Of a DNA stretch of 64,000 nucleotides, positions 26,965-61,501 are shown piece by piece (the stretch's first letter is position 1; each line of letters begins with the position of its first letter). The notes below the pieces were generated by a model, which did no database searches, had not been told where the DNA came from, and worked only from the letters and a program-made list of their open reading frames with translations. The position numbers were made by a program, and so were the translations under genes. Source of the stretch: Enterococcus phage AllMyExes; sequence record PV544171.1; one strand, written 5' to 3'.

Positions 26965-27927
26965 ATGAAGATAGACGAGATAAGCAAATTAGAATTGCCT
27001 AATCTATTTGGAAAATTCCTTGTGGTAGAGACTATTTCGGATGGGTACACTGGAACCGTATCTGGTCACTATAACTACGAGATAGACCAAAAATCTGAGG
27101 AAACTTATATTTACCCTGTATTTTGGAATGATAAGCTTAACAAATTTATTAGGTCAGATGAATTAGTTGTATACACTAATAAAAATAAAGTATACTATGT
27201 TTGTAAAACAACTATAGACCCATATAATCATGCAGTAGTAGATGAGCTCACAGTAGAGGAAGGTATGGACAAAGATAAGCGTACCCTTCAAGCGTTTAAA
27301 CTTTTTGTAAATGACCTATTCTCATTTGGTAGCTACAATATCTTTCTAACAGGTAACCTATCATTAGAAAATAACCCTGATATTGTTCTAGTTAGTAGTG
27401 TATCATTAAACAAACAGACCGCTAAAATGTACACAGAACGGACATTAGAACTAACTGCTACGATTCTACCAGAGGGTGCTACAAACAAAAAAGTTAGTTT
27501 CTCAGTAGATAAACCAGAACTATTAGGGTTAACAGTCTCTGACAATAAAGCAACTGTCACAAGTAAAGATAAGGCAGGTACTGCAATTGTTACCGTAACT
27601 ACTGAGGACGGAGACCACACTGACAAGTGTACAATTCAGATAGAAGAATACATAAAAGTTACAGGAATTAATGTTAGTGGAGAATCTGCTTTAGAAAAAG
27701 GCAAGACGTACAAATTTACTGCTAGTATTGTACCTGATACTGCAACGAATCCTAAATTTACTTGGTCTTCTAGTAATGACACCATAGCTAGTGTTAACGC
27801 AAGTGGTGACGTTGTAGCTTTAGCATTAGGTGAAGCAGACATTATAGCAACAACTGAGGAAGGTAGCCATGTAGGTAAGGTACATGTTACCGTATCAGAC
27901 CCAGAACCAGTAGAACCAACTGAATAA
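26965..27927 (+). CDS. Bacterial Ig-like (Big_2) domain protein, probable virion decoration/adhesin
   Basis: Two Big_2-like repeats are present (TATILPEGATNKKVSFSVDKPELLGLTV...TAIVTVTTEDGDH and FTASIVPDTATNPKFTWSSSNDTIASVNASGDV). The N-terminal domain is paralogous to 27948..28391. Confidence 0.6.
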   Translation: MKIDEISKLELPNLFGKFLVVETISDGYTGTVSGHYNYEIDQKSEETYIYPVFWNDKLNKFIRSDELVVYTNKNKVYYVCKTTIDPYNHAVVDELTVEEGMDKDKRTLQAFKLFVNDLFSFGSYNIFLTGNLSLENNPDIVLVSSVSLNKQTAKMYTERTLELTATILPEGATNKKVSFSVDKPELLGLTVSDNKATVTSKDKAGTAIVTVTTEDGDHTDKCTIQIEEYIKVTGINVSGESALEKGKTYKFTASIVPDTATNPKFTWSSSNDTIASVNASGDVVALALGEADIIATTEEGSHVGKVHVTVSDPEPVEPTE

Positions 27928-41919: not shown

Positions 41920-42126
41920 TTGATTCTTTTTATATTTAGCATTATTACAATGCTATCCATGTTCTTACTATATTTGTTTGGGATGGCTTCCGTAGCTCTA
42001 CTTCAACTAGGACTCCTTATAGGTAGTCAAAATGATATAGCTAAAGGCATGCACTCTTTGCTTTTCACAGGTGTCGCACTTACTGTAGTCACCGAAATAA
42101 CTAAGCAGTGTTTACTATTATTTTAA
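41920..42126 (+). CDS. Small membrane protein
   Basis: It has a TTG start after gggagg. Two hydrophobic helices are present. Confidence 0.4.
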   Translation: MILFIFSIITMLSMFLLYLFGMASVALLQLGLLIGSQNDIAKGMHSLLFTGVALTVVTEITKQCLLLF

Positions 42127-42148
42127 AAAAAAAATTGGAGGATTTAGC

Positions 42149-42655
42149 ATGTTGTTTTTTATTGTTTTAGCAGTATTTATAGGCGGGCTTGCTTTATGGG
42201 GAATGTATGATAGTTATGGGTACCTAGACTGGACTTCATGGTTATTTAGTATTGTGGTAGGCTCTGCTGTAGCTACTTTTTTCACACTGGCAGTGGTCGG
42301 AATTACTTTCGATGTTGCACCAAGTCATGGGGTAACGAAAAGCTATGAACTACACCCTATCTATGAGAACAGTAAAGTAGCTGTAGAGGCTAAAAAAGAC
42401 CAGTTTGAGATTAATGTAGATGGCGGTTTGACAGCTATCGATGCAGAAGGCACTACTATCTTATCTACTAAAGGAGAGATTAAACCTAAAATTGTGTTTA
42501 CAGAGAACTATATAAACACCAACTGGTGGACTCGTTTCCTAGGTATAGCAGATAAGGTAAAAGACACCTCATCAGTTCTTTATTTAGACTCAGATACCTT
42601 AGTGTACAATAAGCCGGAAAAGAACAGTAGCGCACCAGATTTAAAAATTAAATAA
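42149..42655 (+). CDS. Membrane protein (2-3 TM helices) with extracytoplasmic C-terminal domain
   Basis: The hydrophobic segments are MLFFIVLAVFIGGLALWGMY and LFSIVVGSAVATFFTLAVVGITF. The RBS is ttggagg. Confidence 0.5.
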   Translation: MLFFIVLAVFIGGLALWGMYDSYGYLDWTSWLFSIVVGSAVATFFTLAVVGITFDVAPSHGVTKSYELHPIYENSKVAVEAKKDQFEINVDGGLTAIDAEGTTILSTKGEIKPKIVFTENYINTNWWTRFLGIADKVKDTSSVLYLDSDTLVYNKPEKNSSAPDLKIK

Positions 42656-43164: not shown

Positions 43165-43209
43165 TTTCTCACTAGAATTAATTAGTGAGAAAAAAATTAA
43201 ATAAAACTA

Positions 43210-43271
43210 TTGACAAATAACAAAACATGATGTAAACTAAGTTTATAAGATAAAGAAGAGGAGAGATACAC
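43210..43271 (+). promoter_or_regulatory. Early promoter + conserved leader repeat (copy identical to 44631..44693)
   Basis: TTGACA is at 43210 and TAAACT at -10. The leader is gtttataagataaagaagaggagagat and the ATG is at 43272. A 58-bp exact match exists with the copy at 44630. Confidence 0.7.
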
Positions 43272-43523
43272 ATGAATGAACAAAAGAAAGTATATGCAAA
43301 ATTAACAGAGGACGAGGCAGTATTTGCTTGTGAACTAGGAGATAAAATTAAACAAATTAGAGAGAGCCAAGAGCTATCTCGATTAGAACTTGCAAAACGA
43401 GCAAAAGTAGACCACTCAACATTAATCTTAATTGAACAAGGTAAACGACTACCAACATTACGTATTATGATGAAGTTGAGCAAAGCGCTACACCGAGAAC
43501 TAGCTATTAGCTTTACAGATTAA
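43272..43523 (+). CDS. XRE-family helix-turn-helix transcriptional regulator
   Basis: The HTH_3 pattern reads LGDKIKQIRESQELSRLELAKRAKVDHSTLILIEQGKRLPTLRIMMKLSKAL. It is 83 aa. Confidence 0.7.
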   Translation: MNEQKKVYAKLTEDEAVFACELGDKIKQIRESQELSRLELAKRAKVDHSTLILIEQGKRLPTLRIMMKLSKALHRELAISFTD

Positions 43524-43824: not shown

Positions 43825-44613
43825 ATGTTTAGTGTTGTTAAGGCTGACAGCTATGTTAAATCAGACATAGAAATGTATGAATTTAAGAATGTAAAAAGTT
43901 TGGCATTGACTAAGAAAGAGAAAGAACTATGGTCAGGCAAAATTGCTAAATATGCTAATGAGTTTATTGTAGATGCTTATGGAGACTACCATGGTAATAA
44001 AATACCTGAAATAGATGTTGTAATCAATGGTAAGCTAAGAAGAACCCTAGGTTCTTTTGTCCAATTCACTAACACAAACAAACACTGTATAGAGATAAAT
44101 GGTAGGTTTGTTAAAGAAGTTATTCTATTACAAGAAACACCCTTAGCTCAAAGAGCGCTTGATATTTTAATGGATGTAGCCAGACATGAAGCTATCCACT
44201 ATACACTTTGTTATTTAAATAGTTTAAGTGGGGGAGACCTACCAACGTTCAACTACCATGACGGTGGGGAAGACTTTGAAAAAGATTTATGTTTGACAGG
44301 AACTTCACCTAGTGGCGCTACGAAAGAAGAGTATATTTATAGTTCTTTTACACTAGGAGCCATCAGATGCCGACACCATAGTACTTGCCCTGAATGTGGG
44401 TTGGAAACATACATGTATACACGAGGACGGTACTATTGCTATAATGGGTGTGTAGGGGATAACGGTAGAAAAATTATATTTAGACCACAAGGTGATATTG
44501 CAATTTATATTGATGAACCAAAATCTAAAGCTAAACCAAAAGTAGAGGAAGCTCTGAAAGACTATAAAGGAGCGTTAAAGCTACCTTATACAGGTACAGA
44601 AGAAATAAAATAA
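43825..44613 (+). CDS. HExxH zinc metallopeptidase with C-terminal Cys4 zinc ribbon (SprT-like / ImmA-like)
   Basis: HEAIH lies within DVARHEAIHYTLCYL. The C-terminal ribbon is CPECG...CYNGC. It is 262 aa. Confidence 0.5.
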   Translation: MFSVVKADSYVKSDIEMYEFKNVKSLALTKKEKELWSGKIAKYANEFIVDAYGDYHGNKIPEIDVVINGKLRRTLGSFVQFTNTNKHCIEINGRFVKEVILLQETPLAQRALDILMDVARHEAIHYTLCYLNSLSGGDLPTFNYHDGGEDFEKDLCLTGTSPSGATKEEYIYSSFTLGAIRCRHHSTCPECGLETYMYTRGRYYCYNGCVGDNGRKIIFRPQGDIAIYIDEPKSKAKPKVEEALKDYKGALKLPYTGTEEIK

Positions 44614-44630
44614 AAAAATAGTTAAATGTA

Positions 44631-44693
44631 TTGACAAATAACAAAACATGATGTAAACTAAGTTTATAAGATAAAGAAGAGGAGAGATTTATT
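44631..44693 (+). promoter_or_regulatory. Early promoter + conserved leader repeat
   Basis: TTGACA is at 44631. It has the same 58-bp sequence as the copy at 43209. The ATG is at 44694. Confidence 0.7.
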
Positions 44694-45767
44694 ATGGCAT
44701 ACGTAACAAATATTGATGTAGTAGCAGATGGGTTAGATTTATATAATGGGAACTATGTGGTAGAACGAGGTCAAGTAGTTACTTTTAAACTACATGTAGC
44801 GACATGGAACAATGAGCCTACACCCGAAAATGCTTATGCGATTATTCGTAATAATGGAATAGATTATAAGAGTAAGGTTGATGAATTTGGCAATGCAGAG
44901 GTTACCTTCCCAGTTAATGGTCGTCCTGACCAAGTAACAACTAGCATCTTTGCATTAACTTCTGGATATGAGGGGGATATGCCTCGTGTAATGTCAGCTA
45001 TCTTTAGTGACGAAACAGAAATTAAACAAACTGTAATGAACGTTACAGCATCTATTAATGGGGAGCCAGTTAGTCGTGAAGGTGTATTTTTAGAACGAGA
45101 CCAAGTAGTCACTGTAGATGTTAAAGCAACATTATCTACAGGTAAGTTCTGGGAAGGCGCACAGGTAGGCGTGTACAATAACAACACGGAATACTTAGGT
45201 GACCTAGATGCAGATGGTTATGGTTCAGTAACTTTCCAAGTAAAAGGAAAACAAGGGATGGACACATCAGCTATCTACGTATTCGTTAAAGACCATGAAC
45301 GAGAAGCTACACTAACAGTTCCTGTGAAGTTCACTAATACTACTGCTACTACAGAAACTTCTACAGAAGAGTCGTCTACTGTTGATACGACTACAGGAAC
45401 AGAGGAGCCTTCTACTACGGATACAACAACTGTAGAAAGCTCTACAACGGATTCTACGTCCTCTACAGTAGATTCTACAGAAAGTACAGTAGAAAGCTCT
45501 ACAGAGCAAACAGTGACCAATGAAGACACTTCTACTGATTCAGAGGTAGTTGAAACTACAGAAACTTCCCAAGTAGCAGGCTACACAGAGTCTACTTCTA
45601 GTTCTACAGAGTCTAAAGAAGTTAAGGAAACTCATACTAGCACTACAGAACCTGCTAAAGAGTTGCCATCTACAGGCACAGAGGTAGATTATGGGCTTGT
45701 TGGGTTCGGTGGTGTAACATTAACAGTTGTAGTGGCACTAGTAATTAAAAAATTGTTGAATAAGTAA
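44694..45767 (+). CDS. Ser/Thr-rich protein with C-terminal LPxTG-type cell-wall sorting signal (LPSTG + hydrophobic segment + KKLLNK)
   Basis: The C-terminus is KELPSTGTEVDYGLVGFGGVTLTVVVALVIKKLLNK. About 120 aa form a T/S/E-rich stalk. The N-terminal region of about 200 aa is globular. There is no N-terminal signal peptide. Confidence 0.6.
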   Translation: MAYVTNIDVVADGLDLYNGNYVVERGQVVTFKLHVATWNNEPTPENAYAIIRNNGIDYKSKVDEFGNAEVTFPVNGRPDQVTTSIFALTSGYEGDMPRVMSAIFSDETEIKQTVMNVTASINGEPVSREGVFLERDQVVTVDVKATLSTGKFWEGAQVGVYNNNTEYLGDLDADGYGSVTFQVKGKQGMDTSAIYVFVKDHEREATLTVPVKFTNTTATTETSTEESSTVDTTTGTEEPSTTDTTTVESSTTDSTSSTVDSTESTVESSTEQTVTNEDTSTDSEVVETTETSQVAGYTESTSSSTESKEVKETHTSTTEPAKELPSTGTEVDYGLVGFGGVTLTVVVALVIKKLLNK

Positions 45768-45835
45768 GAAACACAATATTGCGACCCTCATTAATTGGGG
45801 GTTGCAAATTATATTATTTTTTTTAAATAAACCTA

Positions 45836-45892
45836 TTGACATTTAACAAACTATAAGGTAAACTAAGTTCATAAGATAAAGGAGGGAAACAA
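45836..45892 (+). promoter_or_regulatory. Early promoter + leader (diverged family member)
   Basis: TTGACA is at 45836 and TAAACT at -10. The leader is gttcataagataaaggagggaaacaa and the ATG is at 45893. An upstream hairpin with a T-run lies at about 45781-45825. Confidence 0.6.
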
Positions 45893-46195
45893 ATGAGTCA
45901 AGTAAGCAAACATGGAGAAAAACGTGTACGTGAACGTGTAGGAGTGAATAAGAGTTCGGTAGACCGTCAGTTTTACTTAGCGTTAGAACGAGGATACCGA
46001 CAACATGAGCTAACAGGACGTTTAAAGAAATGGGTAGTATCAAGAGTATTTAACTCTAAGTACCCTCAAACATGTATTTTATATAATGGTAAATGCTTCA
46101 TTGTTAGCAGTGAAGGTACACTAGTTACTGTGTTAAACATCCCAAGTAATTTACTAAAAGATTTTGCAAAATTATCTAAGAAAAGAGGAAAATAA
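45893..46195 (+). CDS. Hypothetical small early protein
   Basis: A 100-aa ORF and the first gene of a tightly packed operon. Confidence 0.55.
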   Translation: MSQVSKHGEKRVRERVGVNKSSVDRQFYLALERGYRQHELTGRLKKWVVSRVFNSKYPQTCILYNGKCFIVSSEGTLVTVLNIPSNLLKDFAKLSKKRGK

Positions 46196-46196
46196 A

Positions 46197-46499
46197 ATGG
46201 ATATTATGGATATTGAGTTTTTAGAAGAACATAAACAATTAGTAAAAGAACATGTAGAACAAGAATTAAAATTAATGCACCCTCTTAAGAAGTTACAAGT
46301 AATGACAGACTGGTTAGGAGATACAGAAGACAAGCTTTCTCAAGGAGACTTAGATTACTTCAATGACTTAACAGAAACAGAGCTAATAGAGGCAATGGAT
46401 GCTAGTGAGATTGTAGAGTTTTATTCAGATAACTTGTTAGATTTTATTGACTACTACAATATTGATTTAACTGGTTTAGAGGAACAGCTAGGTGTGTAA
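46197..46499 (+). CDS. Hypothetical small acidic early protein
   Basis: The ATG is at 46197, 1 nt after the upstream stop. The RBS is aaagaggaaaa. Confidence 0.5.
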   Translation: MDIMDIEFLEEHKQLVKEHVEQELKLMHPLKKLQVMTDWLGDTEDKLSQGDLDYFNDLTETELIEAMDASEIVEFYSDNLLDFIDYYNIDLTGLEEQLGV

Positions 46500-46501
46500 C
46501 C

Positions 46502-46786
46502 ATGGATAAGGCTGAAAAGGTAGATAACATTGTAAGACAGGTCGCAGGGGCTATTATTAAAACAACTGCAAAAGCAGCTTTTATTGTTTTTGTTTTAACC
46601 TTTGCAGGTGTTTTAGTAAGTTATTGTAGTTATTCATTTTTAACAAATGTAGGCTGGTTTACCCTACCTATGGTGGTATCAGTAGACTTGCTGTATGTTG
46701 CAATACTGTTAGGTGGACTAGCTTTTATATTTGTAGAGGTATACAAGGTAGTTTTAGAAGTGAAAAAGATAGTTAAACGAGGTTAG
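46502..46786 (+). CDS. Small membrane protein (2-3 TM)
   Basis: The hydrophobic segments are AAFIVFVLTFAGVLVSY and LLYVAILLGGLAFIFV. Confidence 0.5.
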   Translation: MDKAEKVDNIVRQVAGAIIKTTAKAAFIVFVLTFAGVLVSYCSYSFLTNVGWFTLPMVVSVDLLYVAILLGGLAFIFVEVYKVVLEVKKIVKRG

Positions 46787-47187: not shown

Positions 47188-47565
47188 ATGAACGAATTAG
47201 AGGAACTTAAGAATACGCTGACTAGGCAAAAGCTTTCAATGTTGGAAAGTTACGAAATGAGAGAAGCATCATTTTGGATAATGTTTAATGGGACAATGCG
47301 TACTATCATGTCAGTAGCTGTAGTAGCCTTTGTGAGCTACGCTAAGCATGTAAGACCAGATAATGTAGCCACATGGTTTCTAGCTCTGATTTGGGTTATT
47401 TTCCTAGCAGAAGGTGCTAAAGGTGCTTATGATGCTATTGCATTCGGTATTCACCGCAAAAAATTTGCTAAACATATTAAAAATATGCGTGGAATAATCA
47501 CAATCACACAATTACTTATTAAAGAAGACGAAGAGAAATTAAACGAGGGTAAACTAGATGAGTAA
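47188..47565 (+). CDS. Small membrane protein
   Basis: The RBS is aaggag. The hydrophobic segments are IMSVAVVAFVSYA and WFLALIWVIFLA. Confidence 0.5.
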   Translation: MNELEELKNTLTRQKLSMLESYEMREASFWIMFNGTMRTIMSVAVVAFVSYAKHVRPDNVATWFLALIWVIFLAEGAKGAYDAIAFGIHRKKFAKHIKNMRGIITITQLLIKEDEEKLNEGKLDE

Positions 47566-47788
47566 AGATGAGAAATTAGTTGAGTGGTTTGTAGTTGCTT
47601 TAATGGTGATTATGTGGTTGCTTATCACGTTTAGTATCCTGTACACAATAGTTTCCTTACCTTTCATGGTACATGAAGGGGACTGGCTAGGGATTGTACG
47701 AAACGTACTACTGGACATTATAGTATTGGTAATTGGGGTTGTCGCTACATGGTTGCAATTAAGATTTAAAAAAGGAATGGAGGAATAA
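47558..47788 (+). CDS. Small membrane protein (2 TM)
   Basis: It overlaps the upstream gene by 8 nt. The hydrophobic segments are WFVVALMVIMWLLITFSILYTIV and LLDIIVLVIGVVATWL. Confidence 0.5.
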   Translation: MSKDEKLVEWFVVALMVIMWLLITFSILYTIVSLPFMVHEGDWLGIVRNVLLDIIVLVIGVVATWLQLRFKKGMEE

Positions 47789-55848: not shown

Positions 55849-55910
55849 TTGACAAATAACAACAATTGATATATACTTAATTCATAAGATAAAGAGAGGA
55901 AGTTTTAAAT
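55849..55910 (+). promoter_or_regulatory. Early promoter + conserved leader repeat
   Basis: TTGACA is at 55849. The leader is ttaattcataagataaagagaggaagttttaaatATG. Confidence 0.6.
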
Positions 55911-56117
55911 ATGAAATTATCTGATATTATTCTAGTAGGTTTATTAGTTAGCGTTGTACTACTTTGGGGCTACCTTAGCATTATGATTTGCTTACAAGTT
56001 TTCAGAGCGTTGGGCGGTTGGGATATTAGAACGTTAACGGTTTGCAGTGGTTTGCTATTTGCTTATGTTTTCGGTTTAAAAGGAATTTGGGAACAAGGGA
56101 TAGGGAAAAATAAATAA
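55911..56117 (+). CDS. Small membrane protein (2 TM)
   Basis: The hydrophobic segments are IILVGLLVSVVLLWGYLSIMICL and LTVCSGLLFAYVFGL. Confidence 0.5.
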   Translation: MKLSDIILVGLLVSVVLLWGYLSIMICLQVFRALGGWDIRTLTVCSGLLFAYVFGLKGIWEQGIGKNK

Positions 56118-61439: not shown

Positions 61440-61501
61440 TTGACAAATAACAACAGCTAGTATATAATAGGTTTATAAGATAAAGAGAGGGAGTTATTAC
61501 T
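61440..61501 (+). promoter_or_regulatory. Early promoter + conserved leader repeat
   Basis: It reads ttgacaaataacaacagctagtatataataggtttataagataaagagagggagttattactATG. Confidence 0.6.

Follow-up and report, generated by a model that had tools for sequence, protein, structure and literature searches.

The standard teaching is that sortase anchoring strictly requires a signal peptide at the N-terminus. The gene described here nonetheless specifies a full sorting signal that selection has long preserved, although the encoded protein is incapable of having such a peptide. The gene lies at 44694–45767 on the + strand of a 64,000 nucleotide (nt) stretch of Enterococcus phage AllMyExes (PV544171.1), referred to as the window, to which all coordinates refer. 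It is an open reading frame (ORF) encoding a protein of 357 amino acids (aa) that falls into PHROG 26080 (function unknown). The window is assigned to a phiEF24C-like Kochikohdavirus (Herelleviridae, Brockvirinae), a lytic Enterococcus myovirus, and 37 complete phiEF24C-type Enterococcus phage genomes, including EF24C, ECP3, EFLK1, EF1TV, and 156, match the 3.5 kb around the gene at 96–97.5% identity. Sequence comparison shows that the protein derives from a small family of phage-borne, sortase-type surface proteins, having no signal peptide and a duplicated domain, and that its gene is maintained across the genus Kochikohdavirus in working order and with a transcription unit of its own.

The C-terminus of the protein has the three parts of a sortase substrate, which the first-pass annotation of this sequence had called textbook, and all three are not only present but conserved. 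The LPSTG motif (aa 324–328; 45663–45677, +), in which L, P, T, and G do not vary across the 10 sequences compared, is followed by six polar residues, a hydrophobic membrane segment of 17 aa, LVGFGGVTLTVVVALVI (45696–45746, +), and the basic tail KKLLNK (45747–45764, +), in which K352, K353, N356, and K357 are invariant among the orthologues. The membrane segment holds the highest 19-residue hydrophobicity of the protein, and the sole strongly hydrophobic 19-residue window is that at residues 331–351. The charge flanking the segment is −3 before and +3 after, and therefore an orientation with the N-terminus outside and the C-terminus inside (N-out/C-in) is predicted. The Pfam model Gram_pos_anchor (PF00746) gives the protein 19.6 bits (E = 8.7e-4), just short of its cut-off of 20, and with TIGR01167 the Revolver orthologue scores 17.7 against a cut-off of 15.9, the window protein not being listed. 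The combination of an LPxTG motif and a hydrophobic tail is found in one of the 173 window ORFs of at least 50 aa, namely 44694–45767, which is also the longest Cys-free ORF in the window.

No signal peptide is present at the other end. An in-frame stop lies 9 codons upstream (...*DKEEERFI-M) and the ATG is the first start after it, meaning that an upstream extension is impossible because of this stop; an upstream start or hidden signal peptide was rejected on this ground, and also because the transcript should begin within the promoter cassette described below. The first 20 residues contain no Lys or Arg, three Asp, and no hydrophobic core, every 9-residue hydrophobicity window across residues 1–60 is at or below 1.5, and in the AlphaFold model the first β-strand already occupies residues 3–11. 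The earlier statement that the protein has no signal peptide, with an upstream in-frame start as the thing to look for, is therefore borne out.

Between the head and the sorting signal is an acidic, Thr/Ser/Glu-rich stalk (aa 216–322; 45339–45659, +), of which Thr makes up 35%, Ser 21%, and Glu 17%, and which has a net charge of −22. It is predicted to be disordered, with a predicted local distance difference test (pLDDT) score of <50. The composition given for it previously was right, whilst the length of roughly 120 aa was not, as it is about 105–109 aa. No tandem DNA repeats were found in the stalk. The remainder of the protein is predicted to form two immunoglobulin (Ig)-like β-sandwich domains, the first at aa 1–110 (44694–45023, +; AlphaFold2 block-mean pLDDT 67–89) and the second at aa 111–215 (45024–45338, +; pLDDT 76–91). 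The two domains share 29% identity (E = 3e-8), and they therefore represent an internal duplication. Foldseek searches with the model of the head returned generic tandem Ig and Big-1 folds only, and sequence searches found no relative of the head with a solved structure and no Pfam domain above threshold.

The origin of this arrangement is suggested by a small number of distant homologues. An exhaustive HMMER search of 1.8 billion proteins with the head only identified P0009 (325 aa) and P0011 (288 aa), with E-values of 2.7e-5 and 9.1e-4, and otherwise one generic Big_3_5 adhesin only; a follow-up search added P0019 and P0020. Ig domain 1 of the window protein shares 28–30% identity with the single domain of P0009 and P0011, and Ig domain 2 aligns to the P0011 domain too. 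Each of the four homologues has a signal peptide (e.g., MKKSLFTTIAIATILTAGTVKA), a linker of 12–19 aa, a single copy of the Ig domain, and a stalk, and ends in LPKTG or LPETG, a membrane segment, and a basic tail, so that the phage relatives of the window protein show the ordinary, signal-peptide-bearing form. In a joint alignment, it is precisely their first ∼45 residues that have no counterpart in the window protein, whose Met-Ala leads straight into the conserved start of the domain, YVxNIDV. Comparison of homologues with and without signal peptides, a check proposed when the gene was first described, thus gives a clear division, with all orthologues in the genus lacking the signal peptide and all four distant phage homologues having it. 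The family appears to be rare, with no homologue of the head found in a plasmid search, none of P0009 in a scan of GTDB genomes, no relatives in IMG/VR scans, and no match in a profile search with the alignment of five domains.

The homologues with signal peptides are themselves found in phage genomes. P0009, P0019, and P0020 adjoin a glutaredoxin gene and converge on genes for Amidase_2, holin, XhlA, and sipho-tail proteins, on contigs that are assigned to Efquatrovirus-like Enterococcus siphophages. P0020 lies at the end of an arm of its contig (L009) that includes a DNA polymerase gene with 72% nucleotide identity to Enterococcus phage phiSHEF2 and its relatives. P0011 is on a Lactococcus phage contig, among small genes and between two TTGACA-17-TATACT promoters, and a sigma-A-type promoter lies upstream of both P0009 and P0011. 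On the contigs L006, L009, and L010 the homologue is always followed by a gene for a 74-aa NrdH-like glutaredoxin, the pair converging on the lysis cassette, and the Amidase_2 endolysin of L006, the only contig in which this was read, has an N-terminus resembling a signal peptide, MKLKHLLLTIGATLALGLVGLSNEAHA.

Close orthologues of the gene are present in 37 phage records, all of them from Enterococcus phages (one listed only as "phage ENP2309"), and in 8 protein clusters of 356–359 aa. Every orthologue starts with M[AT][YH]V, none has a signal peptide, and the gene is intact in all 37 records that hold it; the apparent split of the gene in phage PBEF129 results from the annotation of an antisense ORF, the gene being intact. 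Loss of the motif in close relatives had been named as an outcome that would speak against a sorting signal, and the motif is instead kept in every relative found, as LPSTG or LPATG. A metagenome scan yielded two further close orthologues and nothing else. The GenBank label "LPXTG-motif cell wall anchor domain protein" is carried by the gene in EFLK1, 156, 149, and EF1TV, and the motif is thus already public at the level of annotation, whereas the anatomy of two Ig domains, the phage homologues with signal peptides (whose contigs are related to lytic types), and the evidence for selection are new. No publication dealing with the gene's function, transcription or timing, location, virion presence, or missing signal peptide came up in literature searches, and neither did any earlier case of a sortase substrate that lacks a signal peptide.

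The sequences have diverged enough for selection to be assessed. Between the window and Revolver, Ig domains 1 and 2 retain 96% identity at a synonymous divergence (dS) of 0.89, with a ratio of non-synonymous to synonymous divergence (ω) of 0.025, whilst the flanking genes share only 42–70% protein identity. Among the orthologues overall, dS ranges from 0.6 to >1 and ω of the Ig domains from 0.02 to 0.2. The stalk evolves faster (ω of 0.4–0.6), yet its length is held at 108–109 aa through compensating indels in the nine of the ten aligned sequences that were measured, with 0–3 Lys/Arg residues. Where the sorting signal is encoded, the window and Revolver have reached saturation at synonymous sites, and the codons of the LPxTG motif have turned over synonymously (TTG/CTA/TTA, CCA/CCG/CCT, ACA/ACT, and GGC/GGT). 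All four defining positions of the motif are invariant in the 10 sequences, against 10 of the 33 other C-terminal positions (Fisher p = 0.015), whilst the x of LPxTG and the residues flanking the motif vary, and substitutions in the hydrophobic segment remain hydrophobic. These patterns show clear purifying selection on both the Ig domains, where it is very strong, and the LPxTG residues. GC content at third codon positions (GC3) is 0.25 in the gene, equal to that of the rest of the phage, and a recent horizontal acquisition was rejected given this phage-like GC3 and the high dS. With the ω of the Ig domains, GC3, and intactness in the 37 records taken together, the gene is considered to be functional and long resident. 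The descriptive core of the first-pass annotation is retained in this account, to which the two Ig-like domains of the head, the phage family with signal peptides, and the purifying selection, none of which had been seen, are now added.

A close relative from a metagenome, at 1507–2580 of contig L003, differs in its head. Its flanking genes share 84–99% protein identity with those of the window, its Ig domain 1 is strongly divergent (non-synonymous divergence, dN, of 0.24), with 75% identity across both Ig domains, and its stalk and anchor are much nearer to those of the window (dN of 0.07–0.11). This allele raises the possibility that the head may be exchanged or diversified as a module, something that would be consistent with a role in exclusion or specificity.

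The gene also appears to be expressed on its own. It is preceded by a cassette of promoter, leader, and ribosome binding site (RBS) at 44629–44688 (+), which is identical over 60 nt to 43208–43267, as expected from the earlier description of a perfect copy of a promoter-leader repeat. The cassette contains a −35 element, TTGACA (44631–44636), a 17-nt spacer, and a −10 element, TAAACT (44654–44659, +), scoring 10/12 in a promoter scan, with an A-rich stretch upstream of the promoter; a conserved leader then precedes the RBS, AGGAGAG (44680–44686, +), 9 nt ahead of the ATG, and the identity between the two cassettes stops 5 nt short of the ATG. A pattern search found five related copies in the window, against zero expected by chance, at 43208–43267, 44629–44688, 45836–45881, 55849–55894, and 61440–61485 (all +), every one of them in the region of small genes beyond ∼42 kb and following the pattern of TTGACA, 17 nt, TAAACT or TATAxT, then ...ATAAGATAAAG and the RBS. 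The family resembles portable units of early expression, which may mediate the capture or shuffling of genes. Downstream is a strong predicted intrinsic terminator (45779–45826, +) with a 12-bp stem (6 G-C pairs), a 5-nt loop, and a T-rich tail, of which the hairpin proper, after the stop codon, is 45779–45807, and the next promoter copy begins at 45836. Since it has its own promoter cassette upstream and a terminator downstream, with the next promoter right after, the gene is regarded as a monocistronic unit. The promoter at this position is retained in Revolver and contig L003, the terminator hairpin is recognizable in diverged relatives despite its differing sequence (though not tested pair by pair), and the layout of promoter, gene, and terminator is also kept in them. 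Going by the type of promoter, expression is most likely early; in CKA15, another member of the Herelleviridae, sigma-A-like TTGAC/TATAMT promoters precede the early genes, and the −35 element is missing from the late promoters (PMC12282133).

The reading tentatively favored here is that of an early, envelope-targeted accessory protein with a sorting signal that is still functional, plausibly acting in superinfection or adsorption exclusion. The host sigma-A RNA polymerase would transcribe the monocistronic unit from its own consensus-type promoter early in infection, the C-terminal hydrophobic segment and basic tail would bring the protein to the cytoplasmic membrane, and, with the N-terminal part exposed outside, host sortase A would couple it to peptidoglycan. 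The sorting signal is taken to be still in use because none of the LPxTG residues, the length of the stalk, or the N-out/C-in bias of charge has been lost, and the constant-length stalk, the few Lys/Arg residues, the −3/+3 charges, and the lack of Cys are counted as features of an exported, wall-spanning protein. Candidate routes by which the N-terminal part might get outside are translocation independent of a signal peptide and a breach of the membrane at lysis, and the Ig head could then, more speculatively, alter the surface of infected cells or of the debris they leave, most plausibly keeping other phages from adsorbing or delivering their DNA. An exclusion function is favored, again speculatively, because the gene has an early-type promoter and is distributed as an accessory, mosaic element, and because its product combines an envelope anchor with a head of the binding type. 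Taken by itself, the proposition that host sortase truly uses the LPxTG motif despite the missing signal peptide, through a reverse signal-anchor or through exposure only at lysis, is unlikely; in its lysis variant the protein would be held inside and may then coat wall debris so that progeny are not wasted. A tblastn search for a phage-encoded sortase with S. aureus SrtA matched no Kochikohdavirus, the matches being only to other unannotated "phage" records (Staphylococcus, Listeria, Enterococcus, and faecal bacteriophage sp.).

Several points weigh against an envelope-targeted protein with a working sorting signal. The signal peptide is absent from every orthologue, and a C-terminal sorting signal does not by itself export a protein, nor is a route known in Firmicutes for the export, free of a signal peptide, of a 320-aa N-terminal region with two folded domains that contain Lys and Arg. 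That the signal peptide was lost cleanly and long ago suggests that export may be needless. In addition, the Ig-domain ω of 0.025 is unusually low for a surface protein engaged in an arms race, the protein narrowly misses the Pfam threshold (19.6 against 20) and is absent from the TIGR01167 listing, no homology to known exclusion or defence proteins was found with PADLOC and Pfam, its PHROG being of unknown function, and literature searches returned no transcript, localization, or phenotype data for the gene.

Several of these points fit better with the main rival, a tail-anchored membrane protein facing the cytoplasm, which is possible, if somewhat doubtful. The protein would be inserted post-translationally with the N-terminus inside and the C-terminus outside (N-in/C-out), keeping the stalk and Ig domains in the cytoplasm at the membrane, where they would bind a conserved partner of host or phage (e.g., in envelope synthesis, division, DNA entry, or the organization of replication sites), the LPxTG residues being retained for a reason unrelated to sortase. 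Tail-anchored proteins are established in bacteria, and moderately hydrophobic C-terminal segments insert N-in/C-out even without SecYEG or YidC (PMC6794478; PMC3087755). The absence of signal peptides from all orthologues and the lone hydrophobic segment, which ends 6 residues from the C-terminus, agree with this, the strong conservation of the Ig domains would suit the binding of a conserved intracellular partner, and the cassette, abutting the domain boundary 5 nt before the ATG, resembles a deliberate cytoplasmic expression of the "mature" protein. Left unexplained, however, are the invariance of L, P, T, and G through synonymous turnover and the upkeep of a constant-length stalk of the wall-spanning type; moreover, the charge bias, acidic before the segment and with three Lys after it, opposes N-in/C-out insertion, and the homologues outside the genus are all built for export. 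Of the four roles put forward in the first-pass annotation, a tail-anchored membrane protein and superinfection exclusion are still viable. Of the other two, a sortase decoy or inhibitor has gained no specific support, and a virion decoration now appears unlikely.

A decoy, whose LPxTG would occupy host sortase A or the sorting pathway and so keep host surface proteins from being displayed during infection, would make sense of the conserved motif, the early-type promoter, and a phage without a detectable sortase of its own. It is nonetheless improbable, since sortase has its active site on the outer face of the membrane and the motif would need to get there, which raises the same problem of export, the strongly conserved Ig domains are given no role, and the homologues with signal peptides resemble ordinary substrates. 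An ordinary substrate is turned over by sortase and is not inhibitory. Ig-like domains are common on structural proteins of phages, and the tandem Ig-like fold seen in the AlphaFold model and Foldseek searches, together with a second Ig-domain protein of structural type in the window, would accord with a Hoc-like decoration of the capsid or tail, the hydrophobic tail being incidental or related to assembly. The gene, however, is outside any structural module, downstream of the replication module and among small genes with sigma-A-type promoters, the two Ig-domain proteins of the window show no relation to each other, the homologues have signal peptides, and a full sorting signal with a membrane segment is hard to square with a soluble component of the virion, all of which makes a decoration very improbable. 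Hardly credible, lastly, is a non-functional remnant, that is, a gene captured from another phage or a host that lost its signal peptide on capture and retains the sorting signal as an undecayed relic. The signal peptide is indeed cleanly missing at a domain boundary, beside a duplicated promoter cassette, and the family is rare, but the low ω of the Ig domains at dS of 0.6 to >1, the synonymous turnover of the motif codons, the amelioration of GC3 to the phage value, and the intact gene, promoter, and terminator in all 37 records speak against decay, and the selection analysis already largely refutes it.

The surroundings of the gene divide into two parts. From position 1 to ∼42 kb the window carries genes of replication and recombination, encoding a helicase, an SbcC-like nuclease, a DNA polymerase, a single-stranded DNA-binding protein (SSB), and a UvsX-like recombinase; beyond ∼42 kb are numerous small genes of unknown function, on the + strand throughout, and the LPxTG gene is located among them. 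The second Ig-domain protein mentioned above (26965–27927, +) has 320 aa, is described as "structural protein with Ig domain" or major-tail-like (PHROG 215/341), and lies inside the replication and recombination module; its sequence is unrelated to the Ig head of the LPxTG protein. The first gene after the first copy of the promoter cassette (43272–43523, +) encodes an 83-aa helix-turn-helix regulator of the XRE type, which related lytic phages annotate as "repressor" or "transcriptional regulator." The directly upstream neighbor of the LPxTG gene (43825–44613, +) encodes a protein of 262 aa with a zinc-metalloprotease motif, HEAIH, a weak SprT-like Pfam match (E = 0.035), and a Cys-rich, zinc-ribbon-like C-terminal stretch. 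This SprT-like protein ends in ...KLPYTGTEEIK and was considered as a second member of an LPxTG pair, something that was rejected as Revolver has LPFLG at this place and a hydrophobic tail is missing, and its LPYTG is probably a chance occurrence. Small predicted membrane proteins with 1–3 hydrophobic segments are encoded in the small-gene region at 41920–42655, 46502–46786, 47558–47788, and 55911–56117 (+), and would be candidates if the phage brings its own membrane machinery. Further downstream, the TTG start listed for the ORF at 46164–46499 (+) overlaps the preceding gene (45893–46195) by 32 nt, whilst the annotated start in its relatives is just past the upstream stop, and the listed start may not be the true one of this 100–111 aa protein.

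Whichever reading applies, the locus has implications beyond this phage. If the sorting signal is used, there would be an unrecognized route of export or exposure in Gram-positive cells, and a use by sortase free of a signal peptide, if true, would mean that substrates can enter the sortase pathway in a new way and that phages have a new kind of device for timing a surface protein. If the signal is unused, it would have been re-purposed as a tail anchor, with Ig domains of the extracellular type working inside the cell. The findings also show that sortase-type surface proteins are carried not just by prophages but also by virulent phages of enterococci, and probably of lactococci. Phages similar to phiEF24C are leading candidates for therapy against vancomycin-resistant enterococci, and a gene that alters the surface of the infected cell or excludes other phages would bear on the design of cocktails.

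The protein can be compared with several known systems. Like the tail-anchored proteins of bacteria (PMC6794478; PMC3087755), it has no signal at its N-terminus and only one hydrophobic segment, right at the C-terminus, which could suffice for membrane targeting, but its flanking charges predict the opposite orientation, and the segment is preceded by a conserved LPxTG motif and a wall-type stalk. With LPXTG substrates of sortase A (PF00746 and TIGR01167, such as S. aureus protein A and the E. faecalis EF0750/EF2685 family) it has in common the C-terminal LPxTG, hydrophobic segment, and basic tail, as well as an acidic, Thr/Ser-rich, wall-spanning stalk and an Ig-like head, and the stalk and anchor also show a weak, below-threshold resemblance to the hidden Markov model (HMM) NF053819. 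The N-terminal signal peptide is a defining feature of these substrates, however, and the window protein has none, is borderline for PF00746, and is encoded by a strictly lytic phage. Superinfection exclusion proteins of the envelope include Ltp, a lipoprotein of S. thermophilus phage TP-J34, Sie2009 of lactococcal phages, and Llp of phage T5. The likeness to these is that a small accessory gene, transcribed from a promoter of its own, encodes a binding module together with an envelope anchor, and the expected benefit would be the same, namely the blocking of further infection or of the loss of progeny on infected cells and debris; there is, however, no sequence or profile similarity to them, and they are anchored by a lipobox or an N-terminal membrane segment rather than a sortase signal. 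SasX, found on a staphylococcal prophage, is a prophage-encoded LPXTG factor of virulence or colonization. Such factors are likewise sortase-type surface proteins carried by phages in a moron-like unit of promoter, gene, and terminator, but they belong to temperate phages, where they act in lysogenic conversion, and they carry signal peptides, whereas the window gene belongs to a virulent myovirus and has none. The nearest likeness in sequence is to P0009, P0011, P0019, and P0020, which are also phage-borne, have an Ig domain 28–31% identical to that of the window protein, and follow the same order of head, stalk, and LPxTG, but which have a signal peptide, a linker, and one Ig domain where the window protein has no signal peptide and two Ig domains.

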